Below are positions 1 through 50,516 of a stretch of 50,516 nucleotides of DNA, piece by piece. Made by a program: the position numbers and the translations under genes. Under the pieces are notes generated by a model. The model was not told the DNA's origin. It did no database searches and worked only from the letters and a program-made list of their open reading frames with translations. The number at the start of each line of letters is the position of its first letter. Position 1 is the first letter of the stretch. Source of the stretch: an uncultured Planctomycetales bacterium (GTDB taxonomy: Bacteria > Omnitrophota > Gorgyraeia > Gygaellales > Profunditerraquicolaceae); NCBI GenBank assembly GCA_964487475.1, contig CAZAPM010000015.1, forward strand, positions 1 to 50,516, given 5' to 3'.

Positions 1-2
1 AC

Positions 3-806
3 CCCGAAACGGATCGCGGCATTGACCAGGCCATGATCGCGCGCCTGCCCCTTCTCCAGCGCCGTGCGCCAGCTCGGCAGACCGAGCCCCTGCCTGCGCG
101 CCAGCTCCTGCTCCACCGACTCTTTGCTCTGATACTTTTCCTGGCCCTTGCGGGGAAGCGCCACGCCAAAACGTTTGGCCGCGTCATCCAGCTTAGGATC
201 GGAGTGCTCCCCCTCCTCTAACGCCTTGGCGTTACAGGGAAGTCCTGCGGCGATACGGCGCGCCAGTTCGGCTTCGACCTTCTCCCGGCTCGAATATACG
301 ACCTTGGTCCCGCATTTCTCTTTTGGCAGGGTCAGTTTGAACGTCCTGACCGCGCGCAACAATCCGTAATCGCTGTGTGCTCCCCGGGCGATCGCCGAAT
401 AATGGCTGGGTATCCCGGCAGCCTGCCGGCGCGCAATTTCTGCCTGCGCCGCCGCAGCATCCGGATACTTCCTCTGCGGCTCATAAGAAGACTCGGGAAG
501 CGCCACGCCCAGCCTTACCGCAGCGCGATACAGCGCGAAATTGGTATGCTCCCCCTTCTCCAGCGCCTGCGCATAGGAATCCCATCCTAATGACTGACGC
601 CTGGACAACTCCTGTTCCACCTCCTGCCTGGTCTTATATACTGCCCGGGACGGCTTTTTCGGCAGCGCCACGCCGAACTTACGTGCCGCATACCAGAGGG
701 AAAGGTCCGCATGCTCGCTGCGCATAAGCGCGCTGGTGTGGCTCTTCCACCCCAGTTGTTCCCGGCGCGCAAGTTCTGCGTGCACGGCTTCGGCATCCGG
801 ATATGC
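3..806 (-). repeat. Second tandem array of the ~55-aa basic repeat (>=5 copies, runs off the window)
   Basis: AYPDAEAVHAELARREQLGW..EHADLSLWYAARKFGVALP and four further copies, ending LVNAAIRFG at the window edge. Confidence 0.9.
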
Positions 807-3800
807 CAGCGTGCCTCTCTTACGGCCTTCACCCGAACCTGCGGCGGCAACTGTGCCGGCGAACACAAAGACCAAAATGCCGGATATCGAGGCGAGGAGC
901 GCAGCCACCGCGATCACGATTACCAAAGGCACCCAAATACTCCCTGACTGCGCTACCGTGCGCGCGGTCAGCAGACGCTCGCAGGGCAGGATCACGGTCG
1001 TGGTCGTGCCCTGGCCGGGAGCAGAGCGCACGGTAAAACGGCCCCGGTGCAGCGCCACCGCGTCCCGCACGATCTCGAATCCCAGGCCGTGCCCGCCGGT
1101 CCCCGAACGGGAGGTGACCCTGATCCCGGTACGAATAGATTCCAGAATATGCGCTGGCATTCCCGGTCCGTTATCGGAAATGGTAACCTGCACTGCCCCC
1201 TCCTGGGGAAGCAGCCGCACCTCCAGCCGCACCTCCGGAGAAACGGTCCTGTGCTCGGTAAAAGCCTTATTGATATCTTCGAAGATATTGAAGAACATCT
1301 CCCAGATCTTGACCCGGTATCCATGCACCAGGAACGACTGCCCCGGCTCCACGATCCATACCACACGCACGCTTTTCAGAAGCCCGGCCTGGCAGGATTT
1401 CTTGAGCACCTCCCGCACATCCACGTCCGACTTAAGGCCTGCGGCGATCCCGCTGTTGATCACCGTTTTGACCTCGGTGATGATCAGTTGCAGCGCGGGC
1501 ATAACACGGCGGAAATGCTGCTGGGGGAATTCGTAATTCGGATCCGGCTCCAAAGGAATACCCATACTCTCCAGGAGACGCTCCGCGGTCCCGTACTCCC
1601 GTCCCCAGCGACGCATCGCGCTGGCAGCCCAGAAACACCTGAGCATCGCCATCCGGTACCTATGCGCGGGCAATTCTCCAGAATATTTCCGGGTGATCTG
1701 CAGCACCCGCTCCAGTATGGATTTAAGCCGGAAAAGAGGGGCTTTGACCACGGGAGCGTCGAAACAGGAAAGATCCGCCGACATCATCATGATCGCCAGA
1801 ATATTATTGATGTCATGAATGGCATACCGCAGCAAGGTAAGGTTGGAACGCAGCTTGGCTTCGGTCACGGTAGAGATGATCACCTGCCGCTGCAGGCCTT
1901 CCAGCTTCTTCCCGACCAGCTCGTACTCCGGCTCCTCCCGCTGCGCGTCGATCGCCTCTTGATGCGCCTTGCCCTCCACTTCTTCCGCATGCTCATGGCG
2001 GCCGATGGCACGCCAGACTATCAGCCGCAGCCGGGGCAAAGAAAAGTTGCTGAGAATGATCCCCTCTGCTTCGACGGTCAGATAGACCCGGTACGGCTGC
2101 CGGCGAAAATCGCCGAATATCTCGGGCAACGCCTCCGGAGCCCGGATACCCGGAAGCAGCCTGAAGAATCTTACCGGGATACCCCGGATCGACACTTCTC
2201 CGGGAACAGACAACTCCTCGGCCAGAAGTTCCCCCCGCGCCACCCACTCCAGACGCTGCGTTTTCTGCTCGGGAGTAAGATTGTTGAAGAATCCGCACTC
2301 TCGCTCTTCGGCTCTTTCCGTCCGCTCTTTTCTACTCCCGGTTTTTTCCTTGAACCTGCGCGAAAGGGCGATCGCCTTGCGTACGCTCTGCTCCATGATC
2401 GCCAGGCCCCGGATATGTCTGGAGCGCTGGTTGGCCGCGTCCATCAGCCGCTCTGCATCGCTTTCCAGGCCCACTTTTGCCGCAGCAACGAGATGCTCGA
2501 ATTTCACCCCCACCTTCTGCGCCTCATCCACGAACCGCTCGGCGATCTTCTCGGGATACCCTCTGAAATGTTCCTGCACCGCAGCGCGGGCTGACGACGC
2601 GCCGCTATTGCCCGAGACGGCGGATTCCGGTGCCGGCTGCGAAGAACGCGCCGAACGGCCGGCGCTGTCGCACGCCAGCTCGTAGATACCCGCCCATTCC
2701 CCGTGCGCGCACTCCGCGCGGCGGCTCCGGGGAAGTTCGTCGAATACGCCTAAAAGCAGCGCCAGCCTGGTGCGGGTCGCCTCCGGCACTGCCGCCACCA
2801 AAGCACCGTTGCTCAATCCCTGCGCCTCCCGGCATTGATTGAACATCTCCAGCGCCTCCCACCCCGCCATCTTCCCTTCTTCCAGCGCTGCCACCGGATC
2901 ATCCATGGAAAGAACCCCGTTGACCACTCCGTCGACGAATGCATACAGCGGCATACTGCGCAGCCACATCAGACGATGTTCCTTATGCATCATCCCGAGC
3001 ATGCGCATCACAAGGCTGCGGGCAGCGCGGCCCCATCCGTAGCGCGCTTTAAGGCTGTCCGTGCGCGCAAAGCTGGTCAGCCACAGCGCTATAGTGGCAG
3101 AAGCTCCCTGCAACGCCTGTTCCGGGATCGCTTCCAGAAGCGCCAGCGCTTCCCTGGGCTCCCCGGTCTGCATGAAACACCACGCCATGCGGAAAGCCAC
3201 CTTAGGATGATCCCTTCCCAGGGTCGCGGTATCATGATAAAGGTAAAGGAAAGGCAGGCCTTCTTCGATTGCCGTCGCCGCATCCGTCCCGAACACCACC
3301 GGCACGTCATTCTCGCAGAAATCAAGGTATATCCCGGCAAAACGTATCAGCGCACGGACGCTGATCTGATCGCGCTCCAGAAGCAGATCAAAGGTACCGT
3401 TCGGAATGCCCAGCCGCGTTTCCGCCAGCGCATATCCTTCCCCATAGGCGAAACGCGAGGAAACCAGGACCGAGAGCCTGTGCTGCCATCCCTTTGCGGG
3501 CAGCGCCGCGCCGGCCATCGCCGCCCAACCTGCTTTACCGACCTCCCCCACCAACCTTTCCTGCCTCGCCAGAAGCGTGCCGTCAGGAAGCGTTACGGAA
3601 TATTCACGGGCGGCCGCGCGAAGCGTAGTATCCTTCTCCTGCCCGCAGTTCAACGCGCCGGGGGTGCAGGCTTTTCCCTGAAGGACCCTCTCCACCAGCG
3701 CGCGCCGGACATCCTCCTCGGATGAGTATTTCTTGCGGCCGACAGGCAGCTTGACCTTGAGACGTCTCGCGGCATCAAGGAGCGCGCTGTTTCCGTGCGG

Positions 3801-6800
3801 CCCTGTAGAAAGCGCCTTATAGTGGTTCTTCCATCCGAGCTTCGCGCGCCGCTCCATCTCGGCCGTCACTTCGGCTTTGGTCTTATAACGGAAGCGGGCA
3901 GGTGCGCAAGGCAGCGGTACCCCGAAACGTTTTGCCGCATCGCACAACCCCTGGTCGGTGTGCGGGCCGCGGCGCAGCGCGCGGTAATAGCTGGGGATCC
4001 CCCTGATCTGTCTCCGGGCCAGCTCCGCCGTCACTTCCTCCCTGCTCTTGTACCGGAACGTGCTTCCCCCCGGGATCTTCGGAAGCGGCACCCCGAACTT
4101 TTTCGCGGAACGGTAGAGCTTCGGATCGGAGTGCATCCCGTTATCCAATTCCTTTGCGGTGATCGGCAGCCCCGCTTCTTTGCGGCGGGAAAGCTCGGCC
4201 TCGACCGCGATCCGGGTAGGATACGCCACCACCGGAGTCTTAGGCAGCCGCACCTTGAGGGTACGGGCTGCGCGGTAGAGTTTCAGGTCCTTATGCTCCC
4301 CCTTCTGGAGCTGCTGCGGGGTATTCTTCCAGCCTTTGCGCTTACGGGCCTTGAGTTCTGCGCGCACCGCATCCGCAGTCTTATAGAACGCGGTACTCTC
4401 GGCGGCGGGGAATGCGACCTTGAATTTGTATGCCGCGTACCTCAAAGAAAGATCCGGATGCTCGCCTTCCTCCAAAGCCTTGGGATTGCTCTGCCATCCC
4501 AACCCTGCCCTGCGGGCGAACTCCGCCTCAACCGCTTCTCGGGTAAGATATTTCGGGAGATCGGTCTTTCTCCGGGTCGGCAGGGTCACTCCGAAGTGCT
4601 TAGCCGCATTAAGCAGTGCCCTATCCCTGTGCACCCCTGCGCTTAACGCCTTGTAATGGTTCGCTTTGCCTTCCGCAGCACGCCGCGCAAGTTCCTGTTC
4701 CACTACCTCGCGGGATTTATAGGTAAGACGCAAGGCATCGGGAAGCGGAACGGAGAACTTCCTGGCCGCCCGGTACAGGGTCTCATCGGTATGATCTCCG
4801 TGCGCGAGGTCAAGCGCGGTATTGCCCCATCCGAGAGAAGTGCGGTGCTCCAGGGCAGCGGTCACGGACGCGGCATCAGGGAACCTCGGCCCCCTGCGCA
4901 CAAAGGCCACCTGCAGGGATTCCGCCTTTTTCACGCGGGAAGGGGCGGCAGGCAACGGAACAGAATATCTCGCGGCGCCCAAACGCAGAGGGATGTCTTT
5001 ATGCGCCCCGCCCTGAAGGGCCCGGTCGAAACTGGGGATCCCCTGTGCCTGCCTGCGGGCCAGCTCGGCTCTGACCTTCTCCTCCGTATCGTACTTCGCC
5101 TTCCTTATATTCTTATCCAGCACCACCCCGAACTTCCGGGCTGACTTGGCAAGAGCGTGATCGGCATGCTCACCGTCCGTCAGTGCGCGGGAATGGGATT
5201 CCCACCCCCGCGCCTTGCGTGCGGCCAGCGCTGCCATGACCGCATCCTTATCCGGGTACCTTCCAGTGATCTCGGGTAATGCCACTGCGAATTTCCTCGC
5301 GGCCTTGTACAGCGGACAATCCTTATCCTTCCCCCTCTCGAGCTTTTTGGGAGAAACCGGCAGTCCGGCGGCTTTTCTGCGGGCCAGCTCCATCTCCACC
5401 GCTTCCCTGGTAGTATATTGAGAAGGAGTGCCCGGTGCTTTCTGAGGCAGAGCGACTTCGTATTTTAGCGCCGCGTAATAGAGCGCGAAATCCTTGTGCT
5501 CTCCCTTGGTCAATCCGGCGGCATGACAAGGCAGCCCCTGCGACTGACGGAACACAAGCTGTGCCTGCACCGCTGCCGCATCCCGGTATTTGGTGCGGGG
5601 ATCGACGGTCATCCCCGCCAACAGCACCCCGGCGGCGGCACAGGGGCCGACCCAGACAAAAACCATGACCGCAAGCAGTGCAACCAGACCGGGACTTAAG
5701 AAACGCCGGATGAAGTTCTGCACCGTCTCGGGCCGCAGCTCCTGCAGGTTCGGCACGAACCCCTGGCAATAATTCCAGAACGCGCTCCCGCACGTCTCCA
5801 TCAGTTCTGAGATCCACGGCTCACCCTTGACCCTGATGAAATGATGCGCGGCCGCTTCTTCGCGCACGACACCGAGGAATCTTTCCCTGTCGGTGATATC
5901 CGCCAGAAAAGACTTGAATTCCAGCAGGTCCCGGGCCTTGAACACCACTTCGCGATTCTCATAACTGCCGGGGGGGATAGTGAAACACCTCTGCTTCTCG
6001 TCAAACTCAAGCGCCGCCCCGCTGAAGGAGAATATGCACAGCAGCTCCCCGGATCCCCTGGTCTCGACCTCTACCTCTCCGGTAAAGATCACGTTGCCCT
6101 GCGGCAGGTAACGCAAGGGCACGGGCGCGCCTATCCCCAGGTAATGCAGCACGCCGTTGCCGTTGACCCCGGGGACGCGCTCTTTTCTCAAAACGGAAGC
6201 GCGTTCCTGATGGAGAAGGAACTCCCCTGCTTCCATGACCGTAAGATTCACTCCGTCAGGAACCATGGTAAAGGGGAGCCGGCGCTGATATTCGGCCATG
6301 GTCCGCACTCCCAGGGACCCGAAGGCGAGGCGTTCGAATAAGGTCGAACCCAGCGCATACTCCTCCATCCCGTCCGTGACGCTGACCAACATATGCCGCA
6401 GCCCCTTAGGCGGCCTGCCCATCCATGATTGCTGGACGTATATTCGCAGCACGCATATCTGCTGCGAAGGTATTCCTTCCGCAAGGAGCGCTTCCACCAG
6501 ATGCCTGGCGGCGAACTGACAGTCTCCCCCGCGGACGAATACCGGGGACCGGGTCGCCAGCATCCCCCGGCAATCATGCAACCCCTGCGCGAACCACTCC
6601 CCGAACCCGTACTCATCGACCCTGGACTCCTGCGCCAACAGTGCCGCCGAGATCCTCTCCGCATCCGACACCGCCGCCGAAGCGTTCTTGATCACGCCGG
6701 TGAGGACCCCCAGGTTATATTTGAAGTGTCCCCAGACCGCATACGGATAGGCTGCCAGCCAGCTTCCCCAATATCGTTTACCTGTGCGGCGGGAGAAGGC

Positions 6801-9800
6801 ATCGTCCAAACCGCCGAACCACTCCCATGCCCTCTTCTTCAGATCGTCATAGTTCGACACCAGGGTGTGCGCGCCCATGAAACGGTACATGCCATGCGGG
6901 GAGGAGAAGAACTTGAATGGTTCCATGAGCGGCGCCCATACCAGCGCGATACCCCAGCCTATCGGACGCCTCCAGAAGTTCAGCCACCAGCGCCCGCGCA
7001 TCGACCAGCGGTAGAGCCGACCGTACCACGCAGTGCGGGCCACTCCCGGGACGGGTCCCAAAGGATCCGCCTGCGCTCCAAGGAACAGCGCTTCAAGCTC
7101 GTCCGAAGGCTGCTCCGGTTTCCACCAGCGCTGAACCACGTACTCCTCGTGTGCGGATGAAGCCGATACCGCGCCTACCGCGCCCAGCGCGTTCGATTCC
7201 CCCGGGATACTGTTGACCGCCGCACGATCCGGCGCATGGCCGGACACGAGGGCGCGCAACAGATACTGCCCGTTCTCGAATGTCCTCTGCTCGAGGGGAA
7301 GCTTCAGCAGCGCCTCCAGCATCCAGGGATATGCTTCGATCGCGGGATAGATCAGCTTCCTGCCCGTCTCCATCTCCCAGAGCGCAATGAAGGTGAACAT
7401 CTCGTCCCGGCTGGCGCGCGCGGCGGAATGGCACTCGGTGCAGACGGCGTCATCATGCATGGGAATGTTCACGAACACCTCGCGGTAACAGGATGCGAAC
7501 ACCGCATGCCACTGCGGGATGGACCCCTCCCACTCCATCACCGCCAGAAGGAAGTCTCCGGCCGTATCCGCAAGCAGCTCATCCAGCGCATCCTTCCCTT
7601 CCTGCGCCGGCGCCCGGTTGATATCGACCACGAACGCGTTGATGATGTGCCCGATCTCGTGCGCGCCTACCGCAAAGCACATCTTCGGCGCAGCGGCATC
7701 TTCGATCAGGTCCTTCCTGCCGAATTTCATGAAGGAGTTGCCGACCTTCGGAAAATCCTCCGTCAGGAATGTCTGCATCATGATGGTGTTGAGCAAATGC
7801 TCATCGAGCGCTTCGCTCGCGAACCTCGATCCGTCGCGGCGCACCAGGTCCTCCCGGATCACCAGCCATATTGCCAGCAGGAACGCTTTCCACTTCTCAT
7901 TGAGCCACACGGTCGAGTCGGGAAGCAGGTCCAGCGCGGTCGTATCCGCATGCCGGGAAAGGAGCTCCCGGGCAAGTCCCACCGCCAGGCCACGCATCCC
8001 CGATGCCGGGATCAATCCGAACGCATAGATGCGCACCTCCAAAGGAGCCTGCTCGTTAAGCAGAGTGTTCAACGCGGCCTGCTTATACGTGGATCCGGAT
8101 ATACGCGGAGACGCTGCCCCAAGGTAGCACGAGAGTTTTTCCAGCAGGTATCTCCCGTCCTCCTCCTTCTGGAACTTCCTCGCCCGGTATACCAGGCTGT
8201 TGACCGCCACCAGACGGTCATCCTTGGAAAACGCCGGATTGGCGATGATTGCGCGCAGGATATTGACGGCTTCTTTGCAGCAAAGGCCGTATCCTCCGGT
8301 AGCCAGTTCCGCAAGACTCCATATACCCTCCGACTCCTCATGCCGTTTCGTGACCTTCAGATCCCGGAACATCTTCTCCCACAGGGAAAGGTCAACGGCC
8401 TTGCCTGTTTTTGCCGCCCGGGCCAGCGCACGCGAATATACCCGAAGCAGGCTGCCGACCGCGGAATATTTCTGGTTGTTTTCCGCCCGGGCGCAAACTG
8501 CGAGTTGCTCGAGCGCCTGCGCATTACCGCCCAATGCCAGCGTTTCCAGCTGCGCCAGCCCCCTGGCGAAAGCATCCTGCACGGTCATACCGAGGAGGCA
8601 TACTCCCGCCGCAGCGACGCCCGCGCCGGGCAGCAGGGCTGAGAGCGCCGCCAGAAGACAGAGCGCCAGCACGATACCGGCGCGCTTCGCGAACCGGTGC
8701 AGAGCCTCCTCCACCGGCATAAATGGCGCCGGGACCAGTCCGGTGCCGTGCACTTCCTTGTCGGTAAACACACCCGTGAGCGCGCTCACGCCGGATCGGA
8801 ACCCTTTATCCTCCAACGTACTCCGGTACAGCCCGCGGGAGACCATCCTCTCCAGATACGGGATACGCGCCTGCTCGAGCATCTGGGATGCGGACCGGGC
8901 GATGATCCCCTCTCTTCCGGGCATATTCGCGACCAGGTAATAGACCAGGCCCTTGTACCCTACCCGCACCGGATCATGGTGGTAGGTCACTCCGGGGTCT
9001 TCGATATGAGTCCCGTCCTTGTCCAGGAATTCAAAGTTGTCCACTGCCACATCGACCATGATCCGGCGCTTCGGATGCGCGTCGCACACCCTGAGGATGA
9101 GGTCATGCCGCAGCGTGCGCACCGCCTTTCCTCCGGTTCCGACGGCAGCGCCGATCATGATACTGGCGTGCGAGAACGCGTGCTCGACCGCCTCCCAGTC
9201 GAACGCATCGATCACTTTCAGCTCACCATGAGAACACGCGCTTCGCCCGTACTCGCCGGCCAGTAAATCCTCCAGGTAAGGAATGCCGTGCTTCTTGGCG
9301 GAGATAATGACCCGTGCGCCCATGCGCCGTGCCTGCCAGAGCGCGGACAATCCCGCGGCGCCGGCGCCGGTGATGAACACTACGACATCCCTGAGCAATC
9401 CCGGCGCGCAGGCATCCGGATACGCCCCCAGCATCTGGTGCACCCACAAAGGATCCGCGAACACCTGGCCGTCGAGCAGGACCTTTTCCTCATTAAGATA
9501 AATGGCCCCTTGCAGCACGGCCTGGGCCCCGGCCACGATGCTCATAGGATCGAGACAGATATGCGTTTTAGGGAGGTGCTCCTTGGCTTTCCTGACCAGG
9601 CCCGGGACCATGATCCTTCCCGGAGCACCGGCGGAATCGATCCACTCCGGCCGCATGAAAAGCGCCGCATCCTGCGCTTTTCCGGTGATCCCTTCCAACG
9701 CGATCGCGGCGCACCCGGTCTCCAGCACCCTCTCTGCCATCGTGGGAGAGTCGATAAAATGGAAGTAGGTCATGAGCGCCGGGCCGATCGGGTCCGGCGA

Positions 9801-42800: not shown

Positions 42801-45800
42801 CCTTGCGCGCATCGCGTCCTCAAAAGAGGTGATCTTCGCGGGAGAGATATACCCGTGGTTGCCGCATCCGAAACAACCCTGCGGGACGGCAGGCACCGGC
42901 TTCATCACACCGGCCGCTTCGGGATAGACCAGCGCGTCGGAATGGGTGGATCCGAGCAGCAGGACCATGGAAGGCTTTCCGATGGCGTACGCGAAGTGCG
43001 CGGCAAAACTGTCAACGGTGATACCGGCAACGGTCACCCGCAGCACCTCGGCCAGGGACGCCAGGTCCGCGAATTCGTTGCCCGGGGCAGGCAGGACTCC
43101 TTCGGCTATCGGCGCGGTATTAGGCGCCCGTACTTCATAGATAAGATAATCCTCGCGCAGCCCGGCTACCACGTCCCTCCAGAAATCCTCTTTACCCGGA
43201 GCTTTCTGCGGCATGCGGTTCGCGCTGCCGGCGGCAGTGGTACCCAGCCATACGATCCCCTTCTTGCCTTCGACCCGGGCCCGCTCCACCAGCTGCCGGG
43301 CGCGCTCCCTGCCCTGCTCCGCGGCAGCCGCGCTGCCGGGCCCGAAACGAGCCTCCACGGTGTGCGCGCGGTCCAGGGTGACCGGCTGATTGAACTTGGC
43401 CAGGAGCTCGGCCTCCGCGCGGCGCATCATCGCTTCATAATAATGTATGCGCGCGATATTGGGCAGCGCATCCTGATACCAGGTCAGATCGATGATATCC
43501 TCATCCTTGAATTCCGTCGACTCCAGCGGATGCAGTTGATCGATGAAGCCCAGGGAGCCTTCGCGCGTAAGGTATCCCTCAAGCAGGCCCGACATCTTCA
43601 GAGGCAGCAGCACGTGGACGGGCAGCTGCGGGAACTGCGCATGCAGCGCCTTGAGCGTGCGGGTCGATCCCAGCACGTCCCCGAAGGAATTCGGGAGCTT
43701 GACCACGAGCCGGGTCAAAGGCCGCATCTGGCCGGTTTCCATGACCTTGACGATCGCCCGCGGATTCTCTAAAAGCATCTGTTTCTGCTGCGCATTGACC
43801 GCGACGATCCGGGCGCACACCTCGGTAGAGGCCACCAGCACCCACACCGTATCGGTCACGGACACGACAGGAGAGAACACCACTGCGGAAAATGCCCGGT
43901 ATTCCCCTTCCTGAAAATCGGCGATCACGACCGCAGGCTCGTTATTTGCCTGGCGCGCAGCCACATGCGCTCCGCTTACCAGGGACACCGCATCCAGAGA
44001 CACCGATGCATGCACCTGCAGCAAACGGTACGGCCAGCCCTTCACCCGGCTGAACACAACCCCCTGTTCCTGTGCCATGGGCTCGAGAGTCAAGCCGCCC
44101 TGCACAAGGTGCCGTATCGCAGGAAGCATCCCCTTGAACACGTGCGCGTGGAAATGAGGCACGCTGGCGCCGGCTTTCGGAGCATGCACCGTCACGGTGA
44201 ACATGTCCCCCACCGCCTTCTTGAACACCAGCACGTCCTTCGCGCGCAGCGCATACTCCTGCTCCAGAGGGTCGTCGCTGATAAGCACCATATGATAGCT
44301 TGCCCACGGGTAGAGGTTGGCTACCAGACGATATCCGTTCCCGTTTATTTTTAACCGGCAAATGACCTGTTCCCTCTTGATCCCCGAACAGAATTTGCAT
44401 TCCGCGGGAGTCGCGGGATGACGGATATCCACGACGCGATTTTGCCGGCCCTCATATGCCGCCCGCCATGGGGTAAACGCGACCGAACCGGACAGACCGG
44501 CAACGCCACCCTCAACAGCCGGAAGGGTTATCTCCGTTTCCTCGACCATCATGTTACCTTCGTAATACTGCTGCGGCACAATGGAAGCTCCTGCCTGCAC
44601 TGACGCTTCAACTACCGCACGGTAACGCCCTTCGATGAATGACGCCAGGCTTCCCGCGGGAACGCTCTCCTCCAGTACCACTTGGCCGTGCGAGAACACG
44701 ATCGTCTGGGCGCGCAGGAAGGTAAAAGTATCGGCGCATAAGGCATATACCGCATCGGTGAAGGCGTTGGGACGCTGCCGGAACTCCGCGCGCACCTGGG
44801 CCAGCGGCATTCCGCGGGCGGCGGGGATATTCTCTCCGTCGTTGAGCAGATACGCGAAGAGCGCCACCCATTCATGATTATTCACCAGATCGGAACAGGG
44901 GATCCCCGTTTCCTGAGTGATACGGGTGGCGAAGCGCTGCAACGCCTCCCGTTTGGACTGATCGAAGGTATACGCGAAAAGGGTGTGGTACACCGGCTGA
45001 TATACGAAATGCACCCGCAGGAGAGGATTCTCCTCCTCCCGGACTGCCTCCGCTTCCATCGCCTCGTGCACCTGGCGCAGCAATGATTCCTCCGCATCGG
45101 CGATCGCGGTAAACTCAAACATGGTAAAATGCACCTGGTGATCGTAATCAAGATTCGCGACGCCCGCCACGCGGATAAGCCGATCCGCATCCGGAACAAG
45201 GCCCGTCTTTTCCCTGATCTGGCGCATGGCGGCATCCCGAGCCCGCTCCCCCTCCTGGACGCTTCCGGTCACGGTCAGCGAAGTCGCGGAAGGGAACATG
45301 TATTTGTGCTCCGACCGCTGCTGCCAGGCGACAGAACCGTCGGGATTCACCGCGAGCACGTACACCCCGGCGTGGAAAAGCCCTGCCCGGTGCGCGCGGA
45401 CGTAACTATCCTTGCCCTCGAGCATGGCGCCCTGATGGTCGAAGAGGTCGATCACGGGAGAGCGCACATACTGGTCGACACGGTCCAGGCGCAGGCGCAC
45501 AACCCGGTAATTCTCGGTTGCCCGGCCGCGCACCTCATCCTGCCCGCAGCCGACAAGGCGCTGGTACAACTCCTTGGCCATGAGGTAATAGACGCGCGCT
45601 TTCAGGTAATCCCCGCTGACCAGGAAGCATTCGGCGCTGCGGAAGAGGGAATTCGCCTCGTTCAGCAGCTGCGTGGCATGCGTATGCATCTCCTTCTCGT
45701 CCGCAAAGACATATCCGAGCTCGTGCGCGATAGTACGGTCATCCACCAGCCGGCGGCGCTGTTTGACCCAGTCCGCGGCCATCCCTAAACGCGCCAGCAT

Positions 45801-48800
45801 GTTGGTCTTGGAAAGCGCCTCCGAATCCGACCAGAAGATCGGGGCCTGGATGAAGCGGCATCCGGAATAAAGCGCCAGCAGCAGCCATTCGGTGTCAAAG
45901 GCCCAGCGCTGGTCCTGGGCGTATTTCACGATGCTGCGGATCAGGCCGACGTGGAAAAGCTTGAACCCGCACTGGGTATCCTTGACCTCATCGAGCAGTC
46001 CGCTCAAAAGGTACTCCTTGACCGGCTTCAGTTCCGCGCCGGCCTTCATCTCGTCGCCGCTGACTCCCGGCAGGGAAACCGCCTCCAGGGAAGCCCGGGT
46101 GCCCATGGCTACTGCGCGGGGATCGAGCACCATGGGATAGACCAGTAAGCCGAGCTGGTCCAAACGGGTGGTGATATCGCAATCGGTGTACCCCACCAGA
46201 TCGTGCTCCTTGAATTCCGGAAGCAGCTGCTTCAATCCGTAGAGCAGCGTGCCGCCCTTCTGCATCCCGGGGATGCTCTCCGGCACGCGCAGGACGCGGA
46301 ATTTGCCCGAGCGGACGAAGGGACGGTACAAAGGATCCGCCGAGAGCATCTCCATGGCTACGTCGCTGGTATGGTCCGGGCAGAAATTATCGACCATCAC
46401 CAGCCGGAAATCGAACACATCCCCGTACTGGGCGAACAAACGGTGCAGATGGTTGAGTTTCACGCGCAAGGCATCCTCGCCATGGGGATTCTGTTCGCTC
46501 TTCGGCTGGATCCTCTCCGTCTCCTTGAACACCGCAAAAAAGAGCCATACCGTGACCTTATCCCCCTGGGAACGCAGAAGCTCGGCGGATGCGCGCATGT
46601 TCTTATAGGACGCGGTGATGATCACCTCCGCCCTTCTGGTCTGGTCGGCGGTCATCGGCCACGCACAGTGGATATCCACCGGCACTTCCTCTTCGCCGGA
46701 CGGACGGGGCTGCGCCAGCGCAAAGAAGACCATATCCTCATCGGCGATCGAAGTATATTCGCGGGAGAGATCGAACATGCAGTAGCACGACGCGGCCTCA
46801 CAGCGGTAGATATAATACCCGCTCTGAGAGCTCTCGATATGGGTGGTACTCACGATCGCGCGGCGATTCTCAAAACTGCGCTCCCCGCTTCCCTCGGTAT
46901 GATGCCCCTGCACGAAGACCTTGCCGCCCATGGTCTCCAAACTTGCCAGGAAGCCTGCCCGGCGGATGACGCTGGGTGCGGACTTACGGCCTGCGGCTTC
47001 CGCGGTGCAAGTATTATCCCCCGCCTCGTCCTTGATCCAATCGACGGTAAGCCCCTCGGGATGCTGGGCAAAGGCCACATCTACCAGGGTCGCCTCCGGA
47101 TCGACGGGCAACGCGGAATGCGCGCTGATCACGCCGTTCCCTGCGGCCGCGAGATACGCCAAATGCCCTAACGCCCCGAACACCTCCTCCTGGATCGCCA
47201 ACGCGTACTCCCAGCCGAAACGGGCGATCAGCTCGTGGATGAAATAGGGATTGATCTTGCGGTATCCGAACCTCTGCTGCAGGGCGTCCGCTTTCAGGGC
47301 CGACTCCTCGTGCCACTTCGAAAAATTCCGGATATACCACGCATACGGCTCGAACCGGTCATGATTTCCCGCCAGGAGCGTCACGCTGCGCGGGAACCTG
47401 ACCTTAAGCTCCAGCACCCTGAACACGACCCCGAGATTATTGGTCCCGTTCTGCAAGTAGTCGCCCACGATGACGAGGTGCACCGATGCGGGGTCGGAAG
47501 TTACCCGGTCGAAGAAACGCATCTGCGCCAGCGCCGAATCAAGGGCAACCAGATCCCCGTGCACATCTCCGATCACATACAGCTTTCCCTTGCCCGAGGG
47601 GATATACACCACGTTCCCGCAGCGGAAATACTCTCCCGCGCGGATGTGCTTCAGGGAAGGCGCCAGCCACTCGGGATGCATCGTTTCGCGCTCCGCCTGG
47701 ATGAACTGCCGCGTAAGCTCCCGCATCCTCGCCAGGACCTGCGCTCCGTCCTCCTGGACAAAATAGGACTGCGAGAGCGTCGCAGCCTGCGCCATAAGCG
47801 CCTGCTGCTCATCGGGAGTGGGAACGGGCAAAGGCCGCCCGGAGTGTCCCGGCCCCTCCTCTGCGCGAAGGATCTCCCGCAGCAGCGCGACGGTCTCCCG
47901 CTCGACAAATACCGGGAACCCGCCGCGGAACCCTTCGGAAGCCGCACACGTCTCCAGGGTCGCGATCGCGTCTCCCAGGATACCCAGGGCCACCGAATGC
48001 TGCTCCTTAGCCGTTCCGACTTTCTGCGTCTCCCCGGCCAGCGCGGTATGGGGTGCGACTAACGCATCGAAAAGCGCTCTGATCCTTGCGGGATCCGAAG
48101 ATGAAAGCATCTGCCGCCACAGCCTCGGATCGAGCTGCACCGCGGGATAACGCAACGTAAGGAACTCACCTAACCCCCAGGAGTACATCTTGTACATCAT
48201 GGCGGAGACCTGCGGGGGAAGTACCGTATCCCCTTCTTTCGTAACATAATCACCCGCGGCTGCATCATACCCGAAGTGCCCCTTGGAATTGACATAGTAC
48301 CCTTCCAGGCGCGCCCGCGCAGAGGTATCGTCTCCGGCCGCCTCGCGGACTTTATCAAAGAAGTTCGCCTTGATCTCACCGGGTTCGTTGCTGGTCACCA
48401 GCACGAAACGCACTCCCTGCCCAAGCAACCCGGCGACTTCCTTCGCCATCCCGGGAGAGAGCACTCCGAACGCTCCGGTCAAGGTATCATCCTTGTCGGA
48501 ATACACCACCGAGATCCGCACCAGGGCATCGGGATCGAGATGTGCGGGTAACACGGGGGGCTCTTTCAGGTGCGCGGCCAGCGCTTCAAAAAGGCCGCGA
48601 TACGTCATCGTTCCATGCGCCCGGGAAAGGAGGGAAAGGATATTCTGGGTTGCGGTGAACTTGGACTCGTGCGTATGCCACACGCCGCGGGAAACGGCCT
48701 CCGCAGGCAACTTTGTACCCACAAAGAACCGCAGGTATGCCGCATATCCCGGCATATCTAAGGTAAGGAATGGCAGATCCCCGGCAGAATCTCCGAAACC

Positions 48801-50516
48801 GACCGCCAGGCAGTCTGCCGTTGCCGGATGAGCCTTCAGGTCAAGGCGCAGCGCCATATCCTTGCGCACGGAGCTGGCCGCCATGTAGTCATTCCCGTGG
48901 TACAAGTATCTTCCTTTTGAGGCCAGGAACGCCCGCGCCTCTTCCTTAGCCTCCGCCAACGCAATACCGCTGAGGATATGCTCCCGGACGAACTCCCTGC
49001 GCCTTTGCACAGCGGAAAGGTGCGCAATGATCCGGGAAACGCTGCCGTCCGCATCCGCCGCATCGAAAAGCAGCGCCTGCATCCCCACCCCGGAAGCGCC
49101 CCTGATGTTCTTGGGCAGGTCATCGACCATGAGGCATTTTTCCGCAGGCACGCGCACATCCCTCGCCACGGAAAGGAAGCTCTCCGGCTCGGGCTTCCAC
49201 AGCCCGGTGATATTAGAGGCATAATAATCCGCCTGGCCGTTCTCCAGGAGCTCGAAAAGGAGCGCGAACGCTTTCTTCGCGAAATCGTAGTGGGTATCGC
49301 AGGTGTTAGGCAGGAACCTGACCTGATACCCCTTGGCGATCAGCACCCTGGCCAGGGCGATGGTCTGCCAAATGGGACTGTCCTGCCAGAAGACACGGTT
49401 GAACATCTCCTCGCACGCGGCCACGGTCAGTTCCCGGGGATGCGCCAGGGAGGAATTTTCCCTGATCCAGCGGTTAAGGCCTATGGTCAACTCCGCTACG
49501 TTGATCCGGCCGGGATTGAAATCGCCGATCACGGAATGCTTGAAGGTCGTCTCGTCAAAAAGCTGCAGGGCCTGCTGCAAAGTGATGCCGAAACCACGCG
49601 AGGGCCGGCTGAACTCCGCCGCCACCCTGCGGTAGTCATACCGCAGCAGAACATTGCCCACGTCGAAGATCACGCACGCGGTTTCGGAATCCGACGCCGC
49701 GGGGACCTGCGCCGACAAAGCCGTCTCATGCGGCTTCAAAAGCGACACGCTGTTGGCCAGGGTAAAATGCAACCGGTCGTTAAAGAAACCCTCTAAGCGC
49801 GTGTAATCCACTTCCGCCAGATCTTCAACCACCAGATCGGCCCGGCCCAGGAATCCCGCGGATTCCCGGTCGATGCCGATGGTGAAGAAATGCCCGTTCT
49901 TCGCCGCGCCCACCCCGTCCACCGCATCCTCGAAGACCACGCACTCTTCGTAGCGCAACCCTAAGCGGAACGCCGCGAAAAGGAAGATCTCCGGATACGG
50001 CTTGCCTTTGTTCTTCGGCAGATGGCCGTCGCCTTCGTTCTCGATCACGATGGTATTTCCATCCGCCGCCCGCGCCGCCATCATCGCGCGGAACCTCGAC
50101 GTTTCCTCCGCATTCTCTCCCTTGACCTCTCCGGGATCGCGGTTCGGGTTGAACATGTTGATGTTCCACAGCCGCAGCAGCCGGAAGGCGTTCGTCGAGC
50201 TCGAGGCGGTCGAGATCTTCGCTCCGTGCTGCGTGAGCGCTTTTGCCAGGGCGAGCGTGCTCGGATACACCCCGATCGTCACTTCCTTCGCTTCCGCACG
50301 GGTCAAAAGCTCCTGCACCATCCGGTTCTTGACCGGATAAAGGATATCGCTCTCTTCCCTGGAATACCCGTACTTCTTCAGGATAGCGAATGCGCCGTCC
50401 TTGCCGGGAAGCCCGTCCACTTCCTTCTTATACGTCTCCGGAGTGAACTCGAATGCGGGATCCTTGCGCTTGCCCGCGGTGATGGAACGGAACTGCGCGG
50501 TCTCGGCGGCGTTGCG
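3..50516 (-). CDS. Giant multidomain membrane protein, partial at both ends (>=16,838 aa within the window); Omnitrophota-type giant ORF
   Basis: Minus frame whose codons start at + positions = 0 mod 3. I saw no in-frame TAA/TAG/TGA while hand-translating across the window. None of the track's minus-strand ORFs lies in this register, although any stop would have produced one because in-frame ATGs are abundant. All long + ORFs (1047, 7236, 16509, 21105, 29712, 42855, 48978...) are antisense to it. Recognisable enzyme motifs occur in this one frame from end to end. Confidence 0.93.
975..1830 (-). other. Domain: histidine kinase (H-box + HATPase_c)
   Basis: AIHDINNIL (His 1815-1817); FFNIFEDINKA (N box); ISDNGPGMP (G1, 1161-1175); GGHGLGFEIV (G2); SAPGQGTT. 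Confidence 0.85.
1930..2160 (-). repeat. Small zincin-like HExxE..H module
   Basis: GIRAPEAL..IGRHEHAEEVEGKAHQEA (HEHAE at 1983-1997). Confidence 0.5.
3585..5591 (-). repeat. Tandem array of 12 ~55-aa basic helical repeats
   Basis: Consensus Y-x(4)-AV-x-AELARR-x(3)-G[LW]-x(6)-L-xx-GEH-x-D-xx-LY-x-AARKFGV-x-LP; 12 copies counted. Confidence 0.9.
6300..6560 (-). other. Domain: possible papain/transglutaminase-like Cys-His fold
   Basis: RGGDCQFAARHLVEALLAEGIP..RHMLVSV; the expected Asp is not evident (YALGST). Confidence 0.4.
6690..6960 (-). repeat. CAAX/Abi-like module, divergent copy C
   Basis: VWAPLMEPF..FMGAH..WGHFKYN (APxxE / FxxxH / HxxxN order). Confidence 0.45.
7380..7800 (-). other. 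Domain: zincin-like metallopeptidase
   Basis: GAHEIGH (7647-7661), third ligand region LDELLAD, downstream ECHSAAR. Confidence 0.6.
8710..10120 (-). other. Domain: alanine dehydrogenase (AlaDH/PNT family) with rearranged N-terminal segments
   Basis: LVESGAG..GFSNDEYEDAGA; LVLKVKQP; IGVVKE..EGRVALTPAGV; TYFHF; LDPMSIVAG; ITGAGAAG; MVDVAVD; TYHHDP; YLVANMPG. Confidence 0.9.
11410..12480 (-). other. Domain: (alpha/alpha)6 six-hairpin glycosidase-like
   Basis: TGLFVSF, AVTYDQA, VGPNVWIG, FSTEHNLDYFAF, AVDVQALAIL, FYEFTRQM; aromatic-rich helical hairpins. Confidence 0.6.
12522..12610 (-). other. Internal twin-arginine (Tat) signal-peptide-like sequence
   Basis: FSRRDFLAKAATGVAGVLFGAGFRWAQA|QSV: SRRxFL consensus (12585-12602), Gly/Ala h-region, basic c-region, AxA site. 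Confidence 0.75.
12670..13045 (-). other. Domain: GNAT acetyltransferase
   Basis: IRPARAEDAPVL; VRGY; LEQLVVAPCARGHGIAEGLL; AAGLMQKLGF. Confidence 0.85.
13150..13520 (-). other. Domain: possible CheD/NTAN1/YfiH-fold cysteine deamidase
   Basis: DVLGTSGCTSCIAAA..AAAAHVWA (Cys...His arrangement). Confidence 0.45.
13920..14835 (-). other. Domain: GT2 glycosyltransferase (rhamnosyltransferase/WbbL-like)
   Basis: ISILVHNGWEDT..VVLDNGS; NLGFDEGHN; VLFLNND; VRGMCML; GGWDARYFAYGEEMDL; VWHKSASTSG. Confidence 0.9.
15150..15430 (-). other. Domain: GNAT acetyltransferase
   Basis: EVVGY..GEISAICVHRQWRWRGIGTALF (acetyl-CoA motif A). Confidence 0.8.
15870..16490 (-). other. Domain: glutamate racemase (MurI-like)
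   Basis: AVIDSGIGAL, SDTANCPYGSRS, VACNT (Cys ~16287), LATSATV, IILGCTHF (Cys ~15963); both catalytic cysteines retained. Confidence 0.92.
18180..18450 (-). other. Small zincin-like HExxH module
   Basis: VLAGHERFHL (18243-18257) followed by E..A. Confidence 0.4.
19440..19690 (-). repeat. HEAT-like repeats
   Basis: DEEARCNAASLLA; EPYYRARAACVKAAGIIG; SPEVRLWLFWALE. Confidence 0.5.
19990..21400 (-). other. Domain: degenerate Glu/Leu/Phe/Val dehydrogenase-like
   Basis: DPEPFIRALPV; ATWGLA; LRVAIHGYNN (cf. VAIQGFGN); ADVLVLTG; IVIEATPHAATSSA..L; FIPFSTANVGGAYAARYE (cf. IPDxLANAGGVxxSYxE). Confidence 0.65.
21580..21960 (-). repeat. Repeated multi-TM module (CAAX/Abi-like), copy B
   Basis: VWPFM..VGPLLVEK..LAWHLFH..RMKFAFSPEKLVI..PHAAVN. 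Confidence 0.6.
21970..22830 (-). other. Domain: GT2 glycosyltransferase, ALG5/DPG synthase-like, copy 2
   Basis: VVPMYDEVRRL..NPYGEDALRQK; FVDDGTP; RKGGAV; GYTDLD; AIGSRW; DTQRGFKLF; LAFDVELL; VPISWHDS. Confidence 0.88.
23420..23890 (-). other. Domain: Mpv17/PMP22-like four-TM membrane domain
   Basis: ATGMVICFFADVFGQ at the N-end; LVANFLPGYLQVPVEQVWDLCMTVFSAYLMN at the C-end; hydrophobic helices between. Confidence 0.5.
24110..24340 (-). repeat. Small zincin-like HExxE..H module
   Basis: AAHAPPA..LLAVHEYIERVEGRSHRRA (HEYIE at 24147-24161). Confidence 0.5.
26460..27950 (-). repeat. Tetratricopeptide repeat array
   Basis: Repeated ~34-aa helix pairs: GALVGMGRVWYSRGDLESAADCL; VLNGLGHLAVDRHDLRAARTYFQAALRADP; LHCLGKAYRNHGDTANAILVFRQALAIAPRN. 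Confidence 0.85.
28030..28230 (-). repeat. Small zincin-like HExxE..H module
   Basis: LRSGPRWFFR..IVLNP..VLHELAELSGWTHEDA (HELAE at 28074-28088). Confidence 0.5.
29070..30620 (-). other. Domain: superfamily 1 helicase, UPF1/DNA2/IGHMBP2-like
   Basis: LIQGPPGTGKTT (~30519-30545), SQSNPAVN (Ia), IIEEAG (II), VGDHKQL (III), SLFER, NRRSHP (IV), NTVDAIQGHE (V), RLNVSLSRAQEKLIIVGD (VI). Confidence 0.93.
31200..33700 (-). other. Long, predicted alpha-helical region, partly TPR-like, preceding the helicase
   Basis: Ala/Leu/Glu-rich amphipathic stretches (e.g. LEQGKYREVVEWVDEYL, KRFEQSRQAFLSGFVLSPEN); no catalytic motif recognised. Confidence 0.45.
37390..37790 (-). repeat. Repeated multi-TM module (CAAX/Abi-like), copy A
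   Basis: MWPWM..VAAPSLVES..LAWHLLH..RERLAFCFSQAKLLI..AHMAV; aligns by eye with 21580-21960. Confidence 0.6.
39440..39900 (-). other. Domain: possible GNAT-like fold of unknown function
   Basis: GVLAYARF..LVVTEMQTD..WAGVLLMALEDYARESGMRRMEI; pattern resemblance only. Confidence 0.35.
42060..42640 (-). other. Domain: site-2 protease (peptidase M50, YwhC-like) intramembrane metalloprotease
   Basis: HEYAH (42558-42572), GDITARAMGRLTLNPLRHIDP, FGWAKP, AAGPAVN, FNLLPIPPLDGSR; all catalytic motifs present. Confidence 0.92.
42680..43720 (-). other. Domain: GT9 (ADP-heptose:LPS heptosyltransferase-like) glycosyltransferase
   Basis: VVKLPNSFGDVLGSTRTLKALHAQFP; ITVDSFAAHFAYAIGKPSMVLLLGST; CFGC..C C-terminal cysteines. 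Confidence 0.8.
43800..44480 (-). other. Domain: HIT-superfamily nucleotide hydrolase/transferase
   Basis: CKFC, ANLYPWASYHMVLI, AGASVPHFHAHV (histidine triad at 44142-44156). Confidence 0.8.
44740..45460 (-). other. Domain: Nudix / type-1 IPP isomerase-like fold with degenerate Nudix box
   Basis: AHRAGLFHAGVYVLAVNPDG..QQRSEHKYMFP; GSVQEGERARDAAMRQIREKTGL; NHEW. Confidence 0.75.
45750..46560 (-). other. Domain: GT2 glycosyltransferase, polyprenyl-phosphate glucosyltransferase (ALG5/DPG synthase)-like, copy 1
   Basis: FAVFKETERI..NPHGEDAL; VMVDNFCPD; QKGG; GYTDCD (DxD); DTQCGFKLF; WAFDTEWL; PIFWSDS. Confidence 0.85.
46740..47620 (-). other. Domain: PPP/calcineurin-like metallophosphoesterase (Ser/Thr phosphatase fold)
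   Basis: YVIGDVHGD, IVGDYLQNG, LLAGNHD, SAHSA, FVQGHH. Confidence 0.85.
48100..48960 (-). other. Domain: HAD class IIB (Cof-like) hydrolase with circularly permuted motif order
   Basis: N->C order is VRKDMAL (III, ~48861), VGFGDSAGDLPFL (IV, 48777-48794), VYSDKDDTL (I, 48480-48497), FVLVTSN (II, 48387-48395). Confidence 0.7.
49050..49680 (-). other. Domain: HAD-IA phosphatase, YihX/glucose-1-phosphatase-like
   Basis: VIFDVGNVLL (motif I), FLPNT (II), WKPEPESF (III), CLMVDDLPKNIRGASGVGM (IV). Confidence 0.85.
49790..50516 (-). other. Domain: beta-phosphoglucomutase-like HAD hydrolase (N-terminus outside window)
   Basis: VYPSTLALAKAL..ISTASSSTNA; GKPYPEIFL; ECVVFEDAVDGVGAAKNG; ADLVVEDLAEV (HAD motifs II-IV). 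Confidence 0.85.

Follow-up and report, generated by a model that had tools for sequence, protein, structure and literature searches.

A giant Omnitrophota gene of the multi-enzyme class, enriched in putative arrest tetrapeptides between and within its modules

Our results revealed that the window, as we call the whole stretch of 50,516 nucleotides analysed here (contig C15), can be regarded with high confidence as the middle third of one giant gene of Omnitrophota, which belongs to the Archaeovorin or multi-enzyme class and probably has about 55,000 codons. This type of giant ORF is already published and the gene is a further case of it. However, the enrichment of arrest tetrapeptides (RAPP, RGPP and related sequences) in a giant gene, together with their avoidance in ordinary genes, was not found in print. 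We propose, with a probability of roughly 45%, that the product would be a precursor bound to the membrane, whose translation pauses until force releases it and which the gene's own proteases cut.

Results

Reading frame and assembly

The reverse complement of the window, read from 50516 to 3, contained no stop in 16,838 codons, while each of the remaining five frames contained 108-581 stops. Even at the lowest stop rate among these other frames, the chance of such an open frame is about 1e-47. The GC content at the three codon positions was 64/44/74%. The hexamer coding score of the giant frame was 0.35 (0.21-0.48 across 17 blocks of 1,000 codons), compared with 0.40 for the ordinary genes of the genome; the other frames of the window did not exceed 0.04. 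Strain differences over window positions 1-20000 numbered 112, and the 40 best-supported ones were classified: 28 were synonymous, 12 nonsynonymous and none a stop. The differences were mostly synonymous (28/40 against 25% expected; P 3e-9), indicating selection on the giant frame. The minus-strand ORF of more than 16,800 aa claimed in the original prediction was thus borne out. A scan with 4,227 Rfam families gave 0 matches.

The assembly was checked over window 1-20000, in 30 bins, with Logan contigs of metagenome runs. Two runs (X1 and X2, from two studies whose records give a biogas fermenter and wastewater; either may be the source sample of the assembly) had depth in 30/30 bins. The indels listed for them were a loss of 3 bases and a mutually compensating -1/+1 pair, with no frameshift, but no single contig of either run covered all of this region. 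Runs X7 and X8 had depth in 28/30 and 12/30 bins, respectively. None of the 9 runs listed as containing the sequence was an RNA run.

Host, gene extent and locus

The host genome (1.87 Mb, 36 contigs, 94.6% complete) is placed in Omnitrophota by its RecA sequence: among the 120 relatives listed, 18 carried an organism name (88-92% identical), of which 17 were Omnitrophica/Omnitrophota and one Patescibacteria. Since the window is the entire contig C15, the start and stop of the gene lie on other contigs, as had been claimed. The frame runs on into C22, which carries a frame of 5,655 aa open at both ends and shares 55 exact nucleotides, in frame, with the window start. This join completes a HAD domain, of which C22 contributes the first half, and gives 22,475 aa by exact overlap. 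In the other direction, the frame of C16 (7,804 aa, including a stop codon) begins with 6 copies of the ~50-aa repeat with which the window ends, and C16 also repeats the domain that follows the first ~50-aa array of the window. The 23 copies of this repeat (17 in the window and 6 on C16) have no counterpart elsewhere in the genome. A search of metagenome contigs for pieces bridging the window to C16 gave 0 matches. C5, which overlaps C36, holds the sole giant 5' end, in frames of 7,707 and 9,464 aa divided by an N gap, and the frames of C23, C28, C33 and C34 are open throughout. The open pieces include a single giant 5' end and a single giant 3' end, and the ten pieces total 55,838 aa, including 169 X. 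By parsimony, they are probably one gene in the order C5 (start)-C36-C33/C34/C28/C23-C22-window-C16 (stop), where we infer the order outside the C22-window join. C23, C28, C33 and C34 consist of tandem paralogous blocks of a beta-PGM-like HAD and a nucleotidyltransferase-like module, with 70-88% similarity in DNA; this probably explains why the assembly broke there. The end of C23 is, by eye, a PTS enzyme I-like domain. Relatives carry uninterrupted frames of 35,000-82,000 aa.

Upstream of the giant 5' end on C5, a Pfam scan of 27 flanking proteins identified a secretin, T2SSE, two T2SSF and a Tad protein, and the frame itself has a C39 peptidase (PF03412) at aa 216-301 (31.9 bits, cut-off 22). 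Downstream of the giant 3' end on C16 are PilZ, a solute-binding protein, two permeases and two GH2; these flanking genes would belong with the window through the proposed piece order. Together with the RecA relatives, the match of this locus to the description of West-Roberts et al. supports the earlier assignment to an Omnitrophota giant gene. In the giant pieces of the host, between which the gene has unassembled gaps, no GT5 was found, and a search for SecA-DEAD matched only the ordinary SecA.

Enzyme and binding modules of the window

Domains were called by Pfam and TIGR profiles at their cut-offs, and weaker matches are marked as below cut-off (Table 1). Above the Pfam cut-off were HAD, metallophosphoesterase, Nudix, M50, SF1 helicase (AAA_11/12), TPR, Asp/Glu racemase, one GT2, two GNAT, the N and C parts of alanine dehydrogenase (AlaDh) and HATPase_c. 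All of the phosphatases, Nudix, M50, SF1 helicase, glutamate racemase, AlaDh, GNATs and histidine kinase named in the original prediction were among these, and its figure of about 30 modules agrees with our hand-made list of 31. Other claims held in part. The HIT module is present with its HxHxH but scored below the Pfam cut-off. The four glycosyltransferases became three GT2 and one weak GT9, since one GT2 was above cut-off, the second had an E of 3e-4 and the third was recognised via paralogy. For the glycosidase-like barrel, an alpha/alpha toroid fold is plausible, but there was no Pfam or PDB sequence match and glycosidase activity is putative; homologues of this module are conserved stand-alone proteins of ~650 aa in 46/151 genomes of the phylum, including C2:129764-131689 of the host. 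A SAM-dependent methyltransferase was not found in the Pfam scan of the window.

Catalytic motifs were kept in most modules, with the exception of the Nudix box, which is without what we take to be its usual glutamates. In AlaDh, the N-domain is permuted: residues 32-80, 2-27 and 88-120 of PDB 8hyh align with positions 20-68, 91-116 and 130-162, and a match to the permuted part was present in just one of 30 relatives. The Cys-His spacing of two modules without a Pfam match (~13077-13559 and 6117-6569, minus strand) presumably resembles that of a CheD-like deamidase and that of a transglutaminase-like fold. The basic ~50-aa repeat is possibly nucleic-acid binding, judged from its sequence; only 2 outside proteins with it were found, one of them a restriction-helicase with PF18780 repeats, and its best ESM Atlas match was <0.9. 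Tat export of the toroid module was considered and rejected: TatC was not found in the host genome (94.6% complete) and occurs in only 2/14 genomes of the family. A further internal twin-arginine-type signal lies at aa 6153 of the C5 frame, and giant frames of 8 genomes contain 13 twin-arginine-type motifs followed by hydrophobic residues, several directly after an SSP-like tag.

Table 1. Features of the window, in gene order after the whole frame.
Feature	Position	Strand	Basis or remark
Stop-free frame, 16,838 codons, internal part of giant gene	3..50516	-	aa 1 at 50516
Three HAD phosphatase-type modules: beta-PGM-like C-part, glucose-1-phosphatase-like, type IIB pieces	48117..50516	-	PF00702, TIGR02009/TIGR01509
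Calcineurin-like metallophosphoesterase, DxH/GD/GNH retained	46767..47594	-	Pfam, motifs
GT2 copy a, DxD retained	45747..46649	-	32% identity to copy b over 284 aa; no Pfam match alone
Nudix/IPP-isomerase-like module	44742..45455	-	Pfam, TIGR profiles, motif check
HIT/DUF4922-like nucleotide transferase, HxHxH retained	43917..44489	-	below cut-off
GT9-like glycosyltransferase	42687..43715	-	weak, E 0.21
M50 site-2 intramembrane metalloprotease, HExxH and LDG retained	42027..42644	-	Pfam, motifs
Hairpin linkers 1-4	42015-42143, 38493-38621, 36093-36221, 35226-35354	-	hydropathy
SF1 (Upf1/DNA2-like) helicase	29067..30719	-	AAA_11/AAA_12, TIGR00376
Degenerate zincin-like module with RGPP	28482..28709	-	BLAST context cluster with G228 RAPP copy; EExxH by eye; no Pfam match
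RGPP	28635-28646	-	inside the preceding module
Zincin-like module with RSGP (28203-28214)	28017..28259	-	paralogous to RAGP module, 30% identity, E 9e-5
TPR array	26457..27839	-	Pfam
Hairpin linkers 5-8	26352-26480, 15612-15740, 15030-15158, 11061-11189	-	hydropathy
Zincin-like module (HExxE..H) with HAPP (24318-24329)	24087..24374	-	sequence only
Small module with GIRAGP-like RAGP (23109-23120)	22917..23165	-	SecM motif as in PMC12992588
GT2 copy b	21987..22835	-	E 3e-4, below cut-off
Glu/Leu/Phe/Val (ELFV) dehydrogenase-like C-terminal domain	19917..20819	-	E 8.5e-4, below cut-off
Glutamate racemase, both catalytic Cys retained	15864..16484	-	Pfam; 30% identity to genome's own copy
RGPP	15801..15812	-	linker immediately past glutamate racemase
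GNAT 1, flanked by two membrane hairpins	15162..15569	-	Pfam
RGPP	14835..14846	-	abuts start of GT2 copy c
GT2 copy c	14097..14834	-	above cut-off
GNAT 2	12627..13028	-	Pfam
Internal twin-arginine-type signal sequence	12522..12602	-	TIGR01409 18.6 bits, cut-off 16.7
Probable alpha/alpha toroid module	11427..12449	-	stand-alone homologue matches toroid model weakly, E 2.6e-4
Hairpin linkers 9-12	10149-10277, 8565-8693, 5589-5717, 831-959	-	hydropathy
Alanine dehydrogenase with permuted N-domain (residues 32-80 precede 2-27)	8697..10172	-	Pfam; PDB 8hyh alignment
Basic ~50-aa repeat, 12 copies	3585..5594	-	self-comparison; weakly linked to a protein carrying PF18780
Zincin-like module (HExxE..H) with RAPE	1917..2204	-	sequence only
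Histidine kinase, His site and HATPase_c	978..1844	-	Pfam, TIGR profiles, motifs
~50-aa repeat, 5 further copies, cut by contig end	3..809	-	self-comparison

Arrest-type motifs in the gene and its host

With expected counts taken from composition, RAPP and RGPP together occurred 12 times in the 55,838 aa of the giant gene against 1.26 expected (3 of them within the window), whereas 1,514 ordinary host genes (510,995 aa) had none against 12.25 expected. The difference was significant (P 8e-13; 9e-8 after collapsing paralogous copies). This ordinary-gene background had been filtered by coding score; 6 RAPP/RGPP matches in the unfiltered set look like shadow frames. Ordinary genes also had AGPP 0 times (7.7 expected) and AAPP 6 times (9.5 expected). 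Two further copies in the host, one RGPP and one RAPP, are in a second long gene (C2:65636-80668; 5,011 aa), which has a similar N-terminal hydrophobic segment. In total, the window has 3 RGPP, 1 RAGP and 1 HAPP. The RAPP-type core (R/H/Q-A/G-P-P or RAGP) is present by sequence, and ribosome arrest at it is putative. QGPP was rejected as an arrest motif: 2 copies of it are Walker A loops, one inside the window. The codons at RAPP and at the hairpins described below vary among copies; for RAPP the motif is therefore a peptide, and a DNA-level junction motif was rejected for both.

Arrest-type motifs across relatives

The discovery set comprised the giant-frame parts of 11 of the 20 zincin-matching relatives and of the host (377,800 positions; a separate 2,557-aa frame was dropped). 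Observed and expected counts were 46/3.2 for RAPP, 20/2.5 for RGPP, 8/0.9 for HAPP, 11/2.2 for RSPP and 19/5.3 for RAGP, while the shuffled controls AAPP (3/4.5), ARPP (2/3.2) and RPAP (1/3.2) were at or under expectation. With Lys instead of Arg, KAPP was observed 7 times against 3.5 expected. After masking of zincin matches, 29 RAPP and 17 RGPP remained. Because the discovery genomes had been chosen via a RAPP-bearing profile, two further samples were analysed with a pre-fixed 3-fold threshold. In the first, twelve contigs with a C39 match (250,652 aa), RAPP/RGPP occurred 8 times against 3.58 expected; this 2.2-fold enrichment, with 0 in 7/12 contigs, missed the threshold. A post hoc division of this sample (block ends dropped) gave 0 against 2.56 expected in the Ser/Thr/Asn/Gly/Asp-rich, surface-like majority and 4 against 0.74 in Lys/Arg/Glu/Leu-rich blocks, and surface-like regions may, post hoc, account for the shortfall.

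The second sample was picked by GT5. None of the best 150 matches of a GT5 search over 201 genomes was in a giant frame; 15 genomes chosen for several GT5 matches were then searched singly, and the eight with a match in a frame >8,000 aa were used (116,470 aa). Here 13 motifs were observed against 1.70 expected, in 6/8 genomes, which are not independent as 4/8 belong to the host's family. The controls gave 2 against 12.1, no zincin match was present and the threshold was passed; with three paralogous copies counted once, the count was 11 against 1.70 (P 2e-6). Over all 31 genomes together, RAPP was the tetrapeptide enriched in the most genomes (12/31). The 74 sites of the discovery and C39-picked sets fell into 49 BLAST context clusters, within which homologous positions showed R/Q/H swaps and RAGP/RGPP swaps. 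This swap set matches the one that supports arrest (PMC12992588; PMC10987492). The sites had no preferred distance to membrane segments (7/74 sites, p 0.31), and a force-sensing distance between the two was rejected.

Minigluzincin-fold repeats

A domain of 107-115 aa with RAPP and HExxH..E occurred in 8 copies between enzyme modules on C22, C23 and C5, and in 21/301 genomes of the phylum. Among the 37 matches listed, all were in frames of at least 1,336 aa, and 17 of the 29 outside the host were in frames >14,000 aa. A wider zincin profile matched 109 proteins (median 1,306 aa) among 1.84 billion and nothing in ordinary genes. In genome contigs, the zincin profile gave 1 weak match beyond the phylum, and against PDB and Pfam sequences nothing significant. 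The best ESM Atlas match of the domain was <0.9. The structure model of the 115-aa domain (pLDDT 97) was closest to projannalysin (Z 6.9), selecase (6.5) and proabylysin (6.4), where Z <8 can mean a common fold; the next matches had Z 5.3 and lower. The superpositions had an rmsd of 3.1-3.5 over 81-83 residues at 12-20% identity (Foldseek probability 0.99, E 0.04). The repeated domain on C22 and C23 is therefore predicted from the model to have a minigluzincin fold, a minimal zincin fold with HExxH and a downstream Glu as third ligand, and its proteolysis is putative. HExxH was retained in 67/130 zincin copies. RAPP/RGPP was found in 59/114 copies, and Arg was often replaced by Ile, Leu or Phe while Ala-Pro persisted. 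In the model, RAPP is exposed, within the loop that runs from the strands to the HExxH helix. The window itself has five or six diverged zincin-like modules, chosen by eye and scoring below the profile derived from C22 and C23; a profile built from them found no further copy. MPTase peptidases are already listed in Omnitrophota giant proteins in the Lipocone paper.

Hairpin linkers and lineage-specific tags

Hydropathy identified 38 hydrophobic segments in the window. Twelve hairpins of 22-52 aa, picked by eye and mostly placed between modules, end in a small residue, a hydrophobic residue and Gly; the next residue is Met in 7 of them and Ser, Thr, Val or Gly in the others. In a leave-one-out comparison with 153 ordinary membrane-segment ends, 9/12 scored above at least 98.7% of these, as did 2 of 5 segments on C16. 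In most copies, the ending differs from what we take to be the double-glycine site of C39 peptidases. Among relatives, it was seen in 7/42 cases in genome G286 and near chance in nine other genomes. A universal Gly-Met hairpin cleavage signal was consequently rejected, its support being confined to the host and G286, and by its sequence the hairpin is a repeated linker specific to the lineage and, at most, a candidate cut site. Prepilin-like sites at hairpin starts were likewise rejected (0/25 window segments; 7/83 in G286). The C40 frames of G286 have hairpins that start with a prepilin/TadE-like G-Q/F-S-L (7/83 segments against 3/388 in ordinary genes), which is of interest given the Tad locus. 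Other lineages have tags of their own. SSP followed by hydrophobic residues recurs every 200-600 aa in giant frames of seven genomes (G091, G186, G226, G018, G218, G125 and G318), with 52 occurrences in 20,000 aa of G091; DGG occurs 32 times in giant frames of G259 and DxGG 33 times in those of G009. As junction motifs of the host, DGG, RSExR, ASSP and SSP-hydrophobic were rejected, with at most 2 per piece.

Discussion

RAPP and RGPP arrest the ribosome in varied contexts, resist EF-P and are released by pulling, and the arrest state prevents peptide-bond formation (Fujiwara 2025, PMC12992588). In the same study, they were the most under-represented tetrapeptides in 12/17 bacterial groups. 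An earlier paper named the RQH family and reported that most of 23 native RAPP-like sequences arrested inefficiently (Fujiwara 2024, PMC10987492). By title, none of the papers listed for RAPP and Omnitrophota concerned translation, and our searches found no report that joins a polyprotein with Omnitrophota and none on translational pausing or arrest in bacterial giant proteins, with most subscription papers and supplements outside the search; the domain catalogues of West-Roberts et al. and of Nielsen & Lui could be relevant to the zincin repeat; the word 'Omnitroph' is absent from the main texts of both Fujiwara papers.

We suggest that the giant product would be a membrane-bound precursor rather than one folded machine. 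Its N-terminal part with the C39 peptidase would be exported first. The ribosome would then make a chain of gene-sized enzyme and binding modules, spaced by membrane hairpins and small minigluzincin domains, and would pause repeatedly at RAPP, RGPP, RAGP or HAPP until folding, membrane insertion or export pulls the chain. The gene's own proteases (C39, M50 and the minigluzincins) could then set modules free, singly or in blocks. A single chain that combines cytoplasmic enzymes with a histidine kinase and an internal signal sequence would presumably be easier to use after cutting. A more specific version, which we offer tentatively and think somewhat doubtful as a whole, is that internal arrest motifs punctuate the enzyme-bearing parts of Omnitrophota giant genes in general, giving a force-released stepwise translation of a 50,000-codon mRNA, in which each step would be tied to the folding or insertion of one module and to the cutting free of that module by a minigluzincin within the chain. 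Use of the product against prey may be suggested by analogy with the literature on V. archaeovorus.

It is possible, though rather unlikely in our judgement, that RAPP-type motifs are a structural minigluzincin loop or a recognition or cleavage site (e.g., for Pro-Pro cutting by zincins), and that the precursor is cut without programmed stalling. The exposed loop leading from the strands to the HExxH helix would suit this, as would an HE dipeptide within 75 aa downstream at 48/85 discovery sites (9% at random). RAPP loss also accompanies loss of HExx[HE] (48/11/26/29; odds ratio 4.9, in related sequences), and the frequent hydrophobic replacement of Arg beside a constant Ala-Pro is as in a structural turn. 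However, the motif is still enriched outside zincin matches in the 109 proteins (31 against 2.3) and in the GT5-picked sample, where zincin matches were absent (13 against 1.7) and a downstream HE was found at 3/16 sites. Moreover, its position differs among zincin families, it occurs also in bare linkers, and Arg is not replaced by Lys (KAPP 7/3.5).

Alternatively, the product may remain uncut, as a many-pass membrane scaffold or a surface coat displaying enzymes against prey, as proposed for V. archaeovorus. The 38 hydrophobic segments of the window point that way, as do the coat proposal and the 3-fold more peptides in attached V. archaeovorus cells (Seymour et al. 2023, citing Kizina 2022) and the fact that no cleavage is demonstrated in the available text of West-Roberts et al. 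This reading seems unlikely to us, since ~13,000 aa on C22, C23, C28, C33 and C34 are nearly without membrane segments and carry cytoplasmic-type enzymes, several proteases are encoded by the gene, and relatives show dense lineage-specific punctuation (SSP-hydrophobic in G091, DGG in G259). Protease-free production of the modules as individual chains, by stop-and-go at stalling motifs or by re-initiation at the Met after a hairpin, is improbable. We know of no bacterial stop-and-go, no Shine-Dalgarno-like sequence was seen by eye at usable spacing upstream of the hairpin ATGs, and the minigluzincin motif sits inside the fold; on the other side stand the Met after Gly in 7/12 hairpins and the block of peptide-bond formation in the arrest state (PMC12992588). 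Finally, an assembly artefact or non-coding accident, for which one may cite a short-read MAG of 36 contigs, a gene broken at repeats with N gaps and a check of 20 of 50.5 kb by contigs rather than reads, is largely refuted and very improbable in view of the absence of stops, the synonymous bias of strain differences (28/40 against 25%, none a stop), the tiling of window 1-20000 by contigs from two studies and the single frames of 35,000-82,000 aa in relatives.

The question at stake is how giant Omnitrophota proteins are translated and whether they are cut; their cleavage points are unknown according to the text available from West-Roberts et al. The motif sites offer concrete places to study the making and cutting of such proteins. 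If they are working pauses, this would be a new use of arrest motifs, and short segments could be tested with existing reporters without culture. The proposed precursor, if true, would be a bacterial polyprotein with built-in translational checkpoints that employs the tetrapeptides most avoided by other bacterial proteins. The original prediction caught the modules and missed the recurring punctuation, i.e., RAPP-type motifs, minigluzincin repeats and hairpins. It further held that the domain combination may be undescribed. The exact string is probably unique, but uniqueness is typical of the class: 80% of 3,284 clusters are singletons (Nielsen & Lui 2026, bioRxiv 10.64898/2026.06.07.730766). 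A unique string adds little novelty because singletons are the rule, and the recurring punctuation is more informative.

Among known systems, the gene is closest in kind to the Archaeovorins, whose type is the 39,678-aa protein of Ca. Velamenicoccus archaeovorus (West-Roberts et al. 2023, bioRxiv 10.1101/2023.11.21.568195). It shares with them an Omnitrophota host, a T2SS/Tad locus upstream, a C39 peptidase by an N-terminal hydrophobic segment, and PilZ, a solute-binding protein, ABC permeases and GH2 downstream. Both further contain glycosyltransferases, glycoside hydrolase-like modules, peptidases, Nudix, TPR, HEAT, GNAT and many membrane segments; of the Archaeovorin enzymes, GT2, M50 and Nudix are in the window, and GH65- and GH13-like modules were seen on C22 by eye. 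Against the Archaeovorin size of at least 30,000 aa in one frame, our gene reaches 22,475 aa by exact overlap and 55,838 aa if the ten pieces are one gene. It differs in that no SecA-DEAD (present in most Archaeovorins, not all) or GT5 was found in the giant pieces, and in that it is spread over several contigs rather than one assembled piece. The West-Roberts description, as far as it was available, mentions neither RAPP-type motifs nor minigluzincin repeats nor hairpin linkers. The multi-enzyme metabolic clusters of Nielsen & Lui are defined by >10,000 aa and many distinct Pfam families with none dominant. Our gene resembles them in length and varied Pfam content, and HAD, GNAT, HATPase_c, Nudix and HIT are listed there; however, their main text does not mention cleavage, motifs, linkers, RAPP or a polyprotein.

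The arrest peptides SecM (RAGP), ApdA/ApdP (RAPP) and the RQH family have the same tetrapeptides and the same tolerated swaps (PMC12992588; PMC10987492), and the host's ordinary proteome shuns these as in other bacteria. Known arrest peptides, as described in these sources, carry a single motif, close to the C-terminal end of a small ORF that lies upstream of the gene it regulates, and the ribosome stalls there with the last Pro in its A site, whereas the giant gene has many copies, all internal to giant frames and arresting only putatively. The predicted fold of the repeated 115-aa domain is like that of the minigluzincins selecase (PDB 4qhf), projannalysin (4jix) and proabylysin (4jiu). Unlike these, the domain is repeated within a giant chain, about half of its family is without HExxH, and the copies in the window are more diverged.
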